A stretch of 64,000 bases of DNA from Chloroflexota bacterium (GTDB lineage Bacteria > Chloroflexota > UBA11872 > VXOZ01). The DNA lies in the NCBI GenBank assembly GCA_965220175.1, contig OZ244814.1:1952390-2016389 (forward strand), in the 5' to 3' direction. The position numbers were made by a program, and so were the translations under genes. Shown in pieces: positions 23,499 through 28,464 of the stretch; the stretch's first letter is position 1, and every line of letters begins with the position of its first letter. The notes below the pieces were generated by a model. It had not been told where the DNA came from, made no database searches, and saw only the letters and a list, made by a program, of their open reading frames with translations.

Positions 23499-24611
23499 CT
23501 ATCCCCATACGTTACGGGCGGTTTCGGCGACTATGCGGAGTTTTGCGTTTTGTTGTTCGATCGAGATGGGATTGCCAACGATGGATGAGGCGAACCCGCA
23601 CTGCGGACTGATGGCGAGTTGCTCCAGGGGGAAATGGCGAGCGGCCTCGGCAATCCTGGACTCAAGCGCGGCTGGGGTCTCCAATTGCGGAGACTTGGTC
23701 GTGACCAGCCCCAGCGCCACGAGCTTGTCGTCGGGCACGCCGCGCAGGGGCTCGAACGAGCCTGAGCGGGGATCGTCGTATTCCAGCATGAGCCGCTGCG
23801 CGTTGATGCGCTGGAGCACCGGCTCGACAATCCGGTCGTAACTGCCTTCGACCAGCCAACGGCCGCCTTGGTTCCCGCGTCAGAGATGGAATGCGAACAT
23901 TACTTCCGAGAAACCGTCCATCACGGCGTTGTCCAGCTCGATGCCCTGGGCGATCCAGTCCTCCGCGGACGAGCCCTGGGCTTCATAGAAGGCCGCCCAC
24001 TGCGGATCCAGCACGAGCGGGTAGTGCGGAGCGTCGAGTTGGATGTAGTTCGCCCCCAGCCTAATCAGCTCTGTGATCTCCTCACGGACAATCTGCGCGA
24101 CGTCGGCCAAGAACGCATCCAGCGTGGGATACGCCGCGGCGGACTGCACCGGCGACCAGAAGTTGGCGAACAGGCTGGGGCTCGGCAATGTCACCTTTAC
24201 GATGCGCGTGGTGCGGCCGCGCAGGTAGGTGAACTCCTCCGCCGACAGGTGGCGCTTCCGTTCGAGTCGGCCGACGACTCCCAGCGTCGCGGGACGTTCC
24301 TTGTGTACGTCTCCTACCTGTGCGTCGCCCTGCCAATCGCCCCAGAGGAACGCGTCAATATCGAATTCGCCAAAGCCTGCGACTGCCTCGGGCATCTGGC
24401 TTTGGAACGAGAGCCTGCGCATTTCGCCGTCGGTGAGGATCTCAAGTCCGGCTTCCTCTTGAGCAGCTACGGCGCTATCGACGGCGGCGTCCTCGGCGTG
24501 CTTGAATGCCGCGGGCGAGATGCGCCCGACTGTAAACTCCTCGCGCGCGGCGAGCAACTCCGGCGGCCTAATGAGGCTCCCAACGATGTCGGCATGGGGG
24601 AGATCCAGCAT
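23499..24611 (-). CDS. Cobalamin-independent methionine synthase II-like (single-barrel) protein with in-frame UGA, candidate selenoprotein
   Basis: VGSLIRP, TDGEMRR, IQLDAP, HL(TGA)RGN, LEYD, SPQCGF; the two track ORFs are in one frame separated only by TGA at 23880-23882. Confidence 0.88.
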
Positions 24612-24724: not shown

Positions 24725-25396
24725 TCATGGTGCCGCTTCCAGGTACTCCTCCCAGAGATCGACGTACACGGCGCTGTTGACGTCGGCGGACTCGCCCCAG
24801 AGCTCGCACGCAGCGAAGCGCACGCAGTAGAGGTGGCGTCCCTCTACCACGCCTTCCGCGCTGAGGTCCGGGTACACTTGCGACCCATAGTGCTCGTCAA
24901 TCGTTCCGACGTGGCCGCGAACGTAGCGCGGCTCGCGGGTGTGTCCGCGTAGGTGGCGGTTACGGGCCCGTACGCGGTCGCCCGGAGCGAACCGGGCCGG
25001 CCCCGGCGCGGGACGGCGGTAGCTCGTGGTCATGAACGGCTTGGCTCGCACCTGTTCGGCGCGCATTACGCGCTCGAGGATGGCTCCGGAGACGGCCAAT
25101 GACGCCCCGCCCGTCCGCAGCTCCTCATCCGAAACCAGACCGGACTCGACAAGTTGCATCCGCAAGGCTGCGAACCAGATCTCGTAATAGGAATAGGCGA
25201 GGTAATCCGCGGGGGGCAGACTCTCCCGGGTGTGGCGCACCATGTCCAGGTTCCACAGCGCCAGGCCCCCGATGAGCCGGACCATGGCGTACACCCGGCC
25301 CTCCCACTCCTCATGGAAGACCGGCTCTACCAACTCCGGCTCGGGCCGCACCGGCCCGAATCCCTGCATCCCACCGAGGTCGTGGATTCTGTTCAT
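24725..25396 (-). CDS. nthB: Nitrile hydratase beta subunit
   Basis: [46 protein letters not shown]; ATGA overlap with alpha. Confidence 0.95.
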
Positions 25397-26010
25397 GGGG
25401 TTCCCGTCGTTGCCGGCCGCTGCGCCTCTTCCACGCCAATCATGGAGTTGCGGGTCACGAGGTCTTGGAGTTCCTCCTCGCGCCAGCCCTCCGTGCCTGG
25501 GGGACGCTGGGGGAGGACGAGGTAGCGCATCTCGGAGGTGGAGTCCCACACGCGCACTTCTTTCTCGGCTCCTATCTCTGAACCAAACTGCCGCATTACG
25601 CCGCGCGGGTCGGCGACTGCCTGCGCCCGGTACGGCGCGGACTTGTACCACACCGGCGGCAGTCCCAAGAGCGGCCAGAGATAGCAGGAGCACAGCGTGC
25701 AGACTACGAGATTGTGGACGTCAACCGTGTTCTCGACGACCCGCAGCACTTCGCCTTGCGAGCTCACGTACCCCAGCGAAGCGATGGCGGCGTTGGGGTC
25801 ATTCAAGAGCCAGCGCTTGAATTCCTCATCCGCCCAGGCTCTCGCCACCACTCGCTTGCCGTTTGACGGGCTAATCTTGTCTTCGTACAGCGCAAGGAGC
25901 GCGTCAACCGCTTCCGGGTCGAGCAGCCCCTTTTCCACCAGGAGGGACTCGAGCGCCTTCACGCTCAGCTCGATGTCGGAGGGTGGCGCCGGGTGGTGGT
26001 CCTTCGTCAT
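25393..26010 (-). CDS. nthA: Nitrile hydratase alpha subunit, cobalt type
   Basis: [14 protein letters not shown] metal motif, [18 protein letters not shown]; start at MTKDHH. Confidence 0.95.
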
Positions 26011-26104
26011 AGCTTGGCTCGCGTACTCCGTGCGAACGCTCAAGGTGAATGGTTTTCTCCAGGAGGGCATCGGCAGGGCTGGTCTTGGCAGAAGATGCCG
26101 GACG

Positions 26105-26180
26105 TGGTGGAGATGAGGAGACTCGAACTCCTGACCCCCTCCTTGCAAAGGAGGTGCTCTCCCAACTGAGCTACATCCCC
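26105..26180 (-). tRNA. tRNA-Ala(UGC)
   Basis: GGGGATGTAGCTCAG...TTGCAA...GTTCGAG...CCA cloverleaf. Confidence 0.97.
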
Positions 26181-26232
26181 GTGCGGCGGCTCTGAATACA
26201 AAGCGGTGGAAACTGAGTACCGACGCCGTTTA

Positions 26233-26309
26233 TGGTGGGCCACTGTGGATTTGAACCACAGACCTCGCCCTTATCAGGGGCGCGCTCTAACCAACTGAGC
26301 TAGTGGCCC
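26233..26309 (-). tRNA. tRNA-Ile(GAU)
   Basis: GGGCCACTAGCTCAG...CTGATAA...GTTCAAATCC...CCA cloverleaf. Confidence 0.97.
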
Positions 26310-26341
26310 TTGAGACGAACAAGACCGCCTCTTCACGGTCT

Positions 26342-26350
26342 ATTGTACCA
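26342..26350 (-). promoter_or_regulatory. Putative extended -10 promoter for the tRNA pair
   Basis: TGgTACAAT about 30 nt upstream of tRNA-Ile. Confidence 0.5.
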
Positions 26351-26654
26351 CTCTTCGCACGGCCTGTACGTTGCTACACCAACGGTAGACACTGCGCGGA
26401 GCACAGGAGGAATATAGCGCAGCGTACGGCACGATGCAACTATTCCTCTCCCCTCAAAGACGGTCGGACATAGGGCGAAAGCTGGCTGACGCAGCGGTGG
26501 ATTGGCTGCCGAGCTTGTGCGGGTAGATGTGCTTATCGGTGGGAAATTGTTGGCCGGGAGGCAGTGTGAAGACGTTTGGCGGAGCGCTGCCAACTCGCGC
26601 TCGTAGTCTCCGCGGGGGTAGACATGGGGATAGTGTTGGGTAGGGGACAACAGC

Positions 26655-26678
26655 AAAAGCCCCTCCGGAAGGAGGGGG
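26655..26678 (-). terminator. Intrinsic terminator downstream of 16S rRNA
   Basis: CCCCTCC-TTCC-GGAGGGG-CTTTT on minus strand. Confidence 0.65.
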
Positions 26679-26801
26679 TAATGGGGTTGCTTGTATTTGT
26701 AAAGCAGGCGGGATTTAGCAGGTAAAGGGTGATGAAGGGGGGAGAATGGGTAGGGAGTGGGGTGGGCAAATGTGGGATAGGAGGTAATGGGTGTAAACCC
26801 T

Positions 26802-28330
<1,529 letters not shown>

Positions 28331-28464
28331 CAAAAGGGAAAACAGAGTTAAGGAACCGCCGTATCCCGGAAAGCCCGAAGTCCCGCTCACCTACGAAAAA
28401 ACGCCCTTACCTTCATCACTCTTCACCTGTTAAGGAGCCGCCTGCTGAAAAACAGGCAAAGGTC

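Follow-up and report, generated by a model that had tools for sequence, protein, structure and literature searches.

The window, by which we mean the whole 64-kb stretch of DNA analysed here, belongs to the genome of an uncultured Chloroflexota bacterium, assembled as a single contig of 3.35 Mb (97% complete), and carries on its minus strand a gene that reads from an ATG at 24611 to a TAG at 23501..23499, with one in-frame TGA at 23882..23880. The gene and the codons that matter most for its interpretation are:

23499..24611, minus strand: coding sequence of the candidate MetE-like selenoprotein, with 370 codons, a TAG stop and a single PF01717 domain
23886..23888, minus strand: codon of His242, the His of the H-x-C motif, invariant
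23880..23882, minus strand: UGA codon 244, read here as selenocysteine (Sec), at the Cys of the H-x-C zinc motif
23781..23783, minus strand: codon of Glu277 in MLEYDD, the putative Glu ligand of zinc, invariant in 48/48 family members
23598..23600, minus strand: codon of Cys338 in SPQCGF, the distal Cys ligand of zinc, invariant in 48/48

The translated context of the UGA is ...FAFHL-U-RGNQGGRW..., and the 126 codons 3' of it include both MLEYDD and SPQCGF. The Pfam domain PF01717 (cobalamin-independent synthase catalytic domain, Meth_synt_2) is matched straight across the TGA (residues 10-342, E 2.8e-16, 60.2 bits against a cut-off of 21), and the nearest solved structure by sequence, 1YPX from Listeria, aligns with residues 6-370 of the query at E 1.1e-48. 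HLURGN aligns with HICRGN of 1YPX, the UGA aligns with the Cys of the H-x-C motif of C. albicans MetE, and SPQCGF aligns with SPQCGF of 1YPX and NPDCG of the C. albicans enzyme. A preliminary description of this DNA had proposed a MetE-like gene with UGA exactly at the Cys of H-x-C, followed by a continuation of 126 residues with LEYD and SPQCGF intact and no other lesion; the frame, the PF01717 match and the alignments to 1YPX and C. albicans MetE all agree with this placement, and there is just one in-frame TGA in the 370 codons. TGA is an ordinary stop elsewhere in the genome, where it ends 636 of the 1936 open frames of at least 300 codons.

An internal TGA could mark a pseudogene that arose by nonsense mutation, or an error of sequencing or assembly, and two facts lean that way: a single base separates TGA from TGC and TGT, and the 120 best full-length database homologues, the named ones of which are called methionine synthase, have Cys at this position in 120 cases out of 120. 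The closer relatives point elsewhere. The preliminary description had suggested a search for homologues in which TGA and Cys alternate at this column, and this is what we found: across 102 related loci (14 genomes of the window's genus, 8 MAGs labelled Dehalococcoidia and the best 80 of 312 metagenome relatives), codon 244 is TGA in 35 and TGC or TGT in 67, amounting to 32 distinct TGA forms and 61 distinct Cys forms. Within the window's genus, which is the sole genus of its order among the genomes examined, an orthologue at 88-100% identity occurs in 14 of 17 genomes (11 with TGA, 3 with TGC or TGT), and completeness is 95-99% in the three genomes that do not have the gene. The 8 further Dehalococcoidia-labelled MAGs, at 68-85% identity, came from a scan of GTDB species genomes and comprise 4 TGA and 4 Cys forms, and the best 80 of the 312 metagenome relatives (60-79% identity) contributed 20 TGA and 60 Cys loci. 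All 22 genes from genomes have 370 codons, align without gaps and carry no other lesion, and each of the 20 metagenome TGA forms stays open for 126-136 codons past the TGA. The TGA loci, which lie in separate assemblies and share 60-93% identity with the window's gene, show no further lesion.

A maximum-likelihood tree of the 102 sequences requires a minimum of 13 switches between Sec and Cys, at least 6 of them forced by well-supported branches; when the labels were shuffled on the tree the mean was 29 changes, and none of 500 shuffles came as low as 13. Purifying selection acts on both sides of the UGA and in both kinds of gene, with dN/dS over codons 245-370 of 0.183 in the 15 genome TGA forms and 0.164 in the 7 Cys forms, and upstream of codon 244 of 0.124 and 0.120, respectively. 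As for the nucleotides themselves, which the preliminary description wanted confirmed at the level of the reads, the gene is matched without a single difference by Logan contigs of two sequencing runs, which probably derive from the source sample. Contigs from coral and sponge metagenomes span the UGA site at 85-97% likeness, and none among the matches listed differs at 23880..23882. Because of the alternation, the intact downstream frames, the switches on the tree and the dN/dS values, we take pseudogene and sequencing error to be excluded for practical purposes, the probability left to them being negligible. In runs that contain this genome, a contig of another organism at >100x matches the gene only at 23828..23888 and 24220..24254, suggesting that a relative of the family is abundant in that sample.

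The genome has what is needed to decode UGA as Sec. The genes selA (577 bits), selB (375 bits) and selD (381 bits) all score over their family cut-offs, and a tRNA-Sec with anticodon TCA is found over cut-off at 67 bits (ARAGORN: tRNA-SeC). The selD gene (C1:1460026-1460952) carries an in-frame TGA of its own, in the motif CAG-U-AGK, and 31 nt past this UGA lies a hairpin of 6 bp with a GUG loop, comparable to hairpin A of the MetE-like gene described below. Outside the genus, selA is over cut-off in all four of the further TGA genomes tested. The preliminary description had allowed for the opposite outcome, a genome that lacks the Sec machinery and a TGA confined to the one assembly; selA, selB, selD and tRNA-Sec are all present in the genome and the TGA is found at 35 loci. 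The alternation, the machinery and the downstream dN/dS of 0.183 together support its proposal that the gene is a selenoprotein candidate and not a pseudogene.

Two hairpins can form downstream of the UGA, and their elements are:

23850..23868, minus strand: hairpin A, proposed core of the SECIS, nt 15-33 counted from the U of UGA
23865..23861 paired with 23857..23853, minus strand: the 5-bp stem of hairpin A, with apical loop GUU at 23860..23858
23832..23855, minus strand: hairpin B, CUGGUCG-N10-CGACCGG, 24 nt past the UGA

Hairpins A and B are mutually exclusive because both use nt 28-33. The base of hairpin A consists of G16.U32 and A15/C33 beneath a 1x1 internal loop. The bSECIS model, as summarised in PMC13188914, has an apical loop of 3-9 nt with a G in its first two positions, an upper stem of 4-16 bp, a distance from UGA to loop of 16-37 nt and a free energy of -7.5 kcal/mol or lower (PMC13188914). 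Hairpin A agrees with the model in stem (5 bp), loop and loop G (GUU or GGU) and spacing (19 nt). Its energy in the window is -6.4 kcal/mol over nt 15-33, and the best fold of nt 12-38 reaches -7.0, so that the bSECIS prediction suggested in the preliminary description comes out favourably for geometry and short of the -7.5 kcal/mol threshold for energy in the window itself. Across the 32 distinct TGA forms, the threshold is passed by 25 on nt 15-33 and by 27 on nt 12-38.

Comparison among loci argues for hairpin A as the element under selection. All five pairs together with a G(G/U)U loop are found in 32/32 distinct TGA forms vs 12/61 distinct Cys forms, the RNAalifold consensus of the 32 TGA forms is hairpin A, and 98.4% of its cells are paired among the 14 distinct genome TGA forms. 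The contrast is carried by synonymous positions: the Arg251 codon is CGT or CGG in 32/32 TGA forms and CGC in 41/61 Cys forms, Leu253 is CTG in 32/32 vs 37/61, and the third base of codon 249 is C in 32/32 vs 42/61. Third-position entropy in the 15 genome TGA forms has its gene-wide minimum at codons 247-258 (0.19 vs a mean of 0.62), and the sequence of hairpin A is kept across loci whose G+C ranges from 0.45 to 0.65. No compensatory change on both sides of the hairpin was found at any of its 9 pairs (0/9), so the support for hairpin A is one of differential synonymous constraint and not of covariation. The Fisher test of the TGA vs Cys contrast gives p 2.4e-15, a value that overstates the case because the sequences are related. 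All five stem pairs are also kept in 42/61 Cys forms, the peptide (G/S)RWL itself favouring the stem, and the 86-nt region folds no better than its shuffles (z 0.64).

The hairpin put forward as SECIS in the preliminary description was B, and it lies exactly where it had been placed (23855..23832, 24 nt past the UGA). It is present and, at -8.7 kcal/mol, more stable in the window than A. The role assigned to it fares less well: all seven of its pairs are complete in 8/10 distinct TGA forms of the genus and in 0/22 outside it, whereas hairpin A is complete in 32/32. Among the genome TGA forms 7 of 98 cells of hairpin B are broken, and the U-to-C change at nt 32 seen in four of them breaks hairpin B and turns the G.U pair of hairpin A into G-C. 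The conserved peptide G(G/S)RWL at codons 249-253 (23853..23867) can by itself encode most of a SECIS-like stem. Judging from these codons, a hairpin present beforehand may have eased the repeated gain of Sec.

Decoding of the UGA could also proceed without selenium, either by read-through with Cys or Trp or by use of the codon as a true stop, which would leave a fragment of 243 residues and possibly a separate C-terminal piece started from GTG 23819. An open reading frame of 106 codons does begin at this GTG within the downstream part, and hairpin A is weak in the window itself. The truncated product would be without two of the four zinc ligands, yet purifying selection downstream of the UGA equals that in the Cys forms; moreover Cys is the sole alternative to TGA, selA is present in every one of the genomes concerned, and constraint on the synonymous sites of the hairpin is confined to TGA forms. 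We consider decoding without selenium improbable, with a chance of about one in twenty.

Turning to the product, its fold and motifs are those of the catalytic domain of cobalamin-independent methionine synthase. The 370-residue protein is without the folate-binding N-terminal barrel, and TIGR01371, the model for two-barrel MetE, gives 47 bits against a cut-off of 929.95 and matches residues 9-195 only. The best models are the single-barrel NCBIfam entries PRK06233 and PRK06520 ('B12-independent methionine synthase'), both under their cut-offs (227.8 vs 313 and 208.6 vs 576), and the protein matches no NCBIfam selenoprotein model; the NCBI family name is 'cobalamin-independent methionine synthase II family protein'. 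The fold predicted from 48 homologues has a pLDDT of 88.7 and a pTM of 0.90, and Foldseek returns 1YPX as its best match (E 2.5e-19) and T. maritima MetE at a TMq of 0.72-0.73. Seven residues, S12, E63, D193, H242, C/U244, E277 and C338, are invariant in 48/48 family members, in Sec and Cys forms alike. S12, E63 and D193 align with the GS, GE and D motifs of C. albicans MetE; we take them to be the equivalents of E. coli Ser433, Glu484 and Asp599, an assumption drawn from the motifs together with the residue list of PMC7857596. In E. coli MetE, zinc is held by His641, Cys643, Glu665 and Cys726, and Ser433, Glu484 and Asp599 bind homocysteine (PMC7857596). Glu277, at the end of a predicted strand (273-277), would be the Glu ligand of zinc, an assignment that we infer and do not read directly from the alignment because the HMMER alignment to MetE is ambiguous at this residue.

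The protein most like that of the window is 1YPX. Proteins of this single-barrel type have about 370 residues, the same domain, an end-to-end alignment and the best fold match, and share the motifs HxCRGN, LEYD and SPQCGF with the window's gene; they differ in having Cys at H-x-C, as do the 120 best database homologues, where the window's gene has UGA. We know of no characterised substrate for the 1YPX family. MetE of E. coli, T. maritima and C. albicans has the same (beta-alpha)8 catalytic barrel, and the corresponding motif positions are invariant here. In contrast, MetE is a protein of about 750 residues with a folate-binding barrel, whereas the window's protein has 370 residues without it, Sec in place of the equivalent of Cys643 and an insertion between H-x-C and the Glu. 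The core methionine synthases MesA-MesD, as far as they are described in PMC7857596, likewise have one catalytic barrel in which the zinc and homocysteine residues are conserved, and take the methyl group from a donor other than methyl-folate (PMC7857596). A MesD identity for the window's protein was considered and set aside, the match to 3RPD, which is named a MesD in PMC7857596, reaching just 31.5 bits. MesX (PF08908, DUF1852) was not found in the genome, and the control genomes likewise gave no match.

From these comparisons we consider it probable, at roughly 0.8, that the product of the gene is a true selenoprotein whose Sec occupies the position of a zinc ligand. As we picture its synthesis, SelB and Sec-tRNA(Sec) would bind hairpin A, 19 nt past the UGA, and selenocysteine would be inserted, giving a single-barrel enzyme of the MetE catalytic-domain type in which Sec244 would stand in for the first Cys of a His-x-Cys...Glu...Cys zinc site. 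On the model of MetE, the thiol of the substrate would be bound and deprotonated by zinc and would then attack a methyl donor; homocysteine, or a comparable amino-acid thiol or selenol, is the probable substrate. A selenolate ligand could make the zinc site more electron-rich than an all-sulfur site, or easier to restore after oxidation. A zinc-selenolate thiol methyltransferase is, on this reasoning, the most likely activity, and our confidence in this specific zinc-selenolate chemistry, which we infer, is below that in selenoprotein status.

A different role for the selenium has to be weighed against that of a passive zinc ligand. The zinc-bound Cys of Ada-type proteins is a methyl or alkyl acceptor, and Sec at codon 244 could similarly be a reactive methyl or alkyl acceptor, a carrier in the demethylation of S- or Se-methyl compounds, or the ligand of another soft metal. 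The missing folate-binding domain and the NCBIfam scores under equivalog cut-offs would suit such a role, and the selenoproteins surveyed in PMC13188914 include other non-redox alkyl-transfer Sec enzymes and, in several new families, Sec as a metal ligand (PMC13188914). Against it, the four zinc-site positions and the three positions aligned with homocysteine residues are invariant in Sec and Cys forms. Furthermore, Sec and Cys interchange freely, with the switches, at least 13 in number, unaccompanied by change elsewhere in the protein: we found no protein column that tracks the Sec/Cys state beyond phylogenetic signal. Since the switches are free and go without accompanying change, the same role is suggested for Sec as for the Cys ligand, and we regard a reactive Sec as unlikely, with odds of around one in eight.

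Sec as the ligand of a catalytic zinc has partial parallels among known selenoproteins. FdhA (Mo/W-Se) and the [NiFeSe] hydrogenases (Ni-Se), as presented in PMC13188914, also have Sec for a metal-ligating Cys and coexist with Cys homologues; these are redox enzymes with redox-active metals, whereas the site proposed here would hold zinc and serve non-redox group transfer. The Sec forms of arsenite methyltransferase and of methylated-DNA-protein-cysteine methyltransferase are, like the present candidate, non-oxidoreductase selenoproteins of methyl or alkyl transfer (PMC13188914), but they have unrelated folds (SAM-dependent methyltransferase and PF01035, respectively) and their Sec does not lie in a MetE-type zinc site.

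To our knowledge, very few prokaryotic selenoproteins are anything other than redox enzymes. Table 1 of a 2026 review (PMC13188914) names 119 prokaryotic selenoprotein families and subfamilies, none of them MetE-like or assigned to PF01717. Nor did we find a MetE-like selenoprotein in the text of PMC13188914, PMC12013277, PMC2398784 and PMC8318568, the supplementary tables of which could hold unlisted candidates. In the collection of papers searched, none combines 'selenoprotein' with 'methionine synthase II', and the one that combines 'selenocysteine' with 'PF01717' is a study of the plant selenomethionine cycle. In our assessment, therefore, both the selenoprotein family that the gene represents and the use it makes of Sec, which would bind the catalytic zinc of a non-redox enzyme, are new. 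We also lean, by a narrow preference, towards the broader proposal that this is the first natural family with a catalytic zinc-selenolate, that a ligand of the Cys643 type has been swapped repeatedly between Sec and Cys in Chloroflexota and in uncultured organisms of many metagenomes, and that the hairpin encoded by (G/S)RWL was perhaps pre-adaptive.

If true, Sec as a zinc ligand in a group-transfer enzyme would widen the known uses of selenium and bear on the old question of why Sec is used over Cys. The many recent Sec/Cys switches amount to matched pairs of natural enzymes for biochemistry, and with the pairs at 90% identity or above the contribution of selenium to a non-redox metal site could be tested directly. 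Annotation would be corrected as well, since gene callers split or truncate UGA genes of this kind.

The distribution of the gene is patchy. A phylum-wide sample of 401 genomes yielded 39 with a match at E <= 1e-100, and TGA forms were confined to the window's genus; because of this, the breadth of the family in Chloroflexota is set by the GTDB and metagenome scans and not by the 401-genome sample. Searches at order and class level found no orthologue beyond the genus, all of the 81 other genomes of the window's own class being without a match at E <= 1e-55. Seven of the 8 Dehalococcoidia-labelled MAGs share 80-85% protein identity with the window's gene, the exception standing at 68%. Identities this high in Dehalococcoidia MAGs, in combination with no match in 81 genomes of the gene's own class, suggest horizontal transfer between Chloroflexota lineages.

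Within the cell, the gene would appear to be an accessory paralogue and not the main methionine synthase. Two adjacent pairs of Meth_synt_1-type and Meth_synt_2-type genes (C1:2230118-2232078 and C1:195080-197550) look like a split MetE, and a full-length MetH was not found in the genome. We base the accessory role on these two split-MetE pairs elsewhere in the genome and on the three of 17 genomes of the genus that do without the Sec gene.

Directly upstream of the gene, also on the minus strand, lie genes for the alpha subunit (with the motif VCTLCSC) and beta subunit of nitrile hydratase (24725..26148). Only 4 genus members show this adjacency (7 loci out of 116, with duplicates counted), and for that reason nitrile hydratase is probably not a functional partner. 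When the flanking ORFs of 103 loci were clustered, no neighbour was common to more than 8 loci, barring the gene itself and overlapping shadow frames, and none was a conserved neighbour hinting at the methyl donor; no corrinoid protein or other partner was found beside the gene. The neighbourhood was tried as a functional guide and set aside. At two metagenome TGA loci the neighbours are unrelated ones, namely histidine kinases, an MFS transporter, a pentapeptide-repeat protein and DUF6909. Further along the window, at 26105..28331 on the minus strand, a 16S rRNA gene (26804..28331) has tRNA-Ile and tRNA-Ala after it, with protein genes immediately beyond them; an Rfam scan of the 64 kb found no 23S rRNA, and the rRNA genes for that reason appear to be unlinked.
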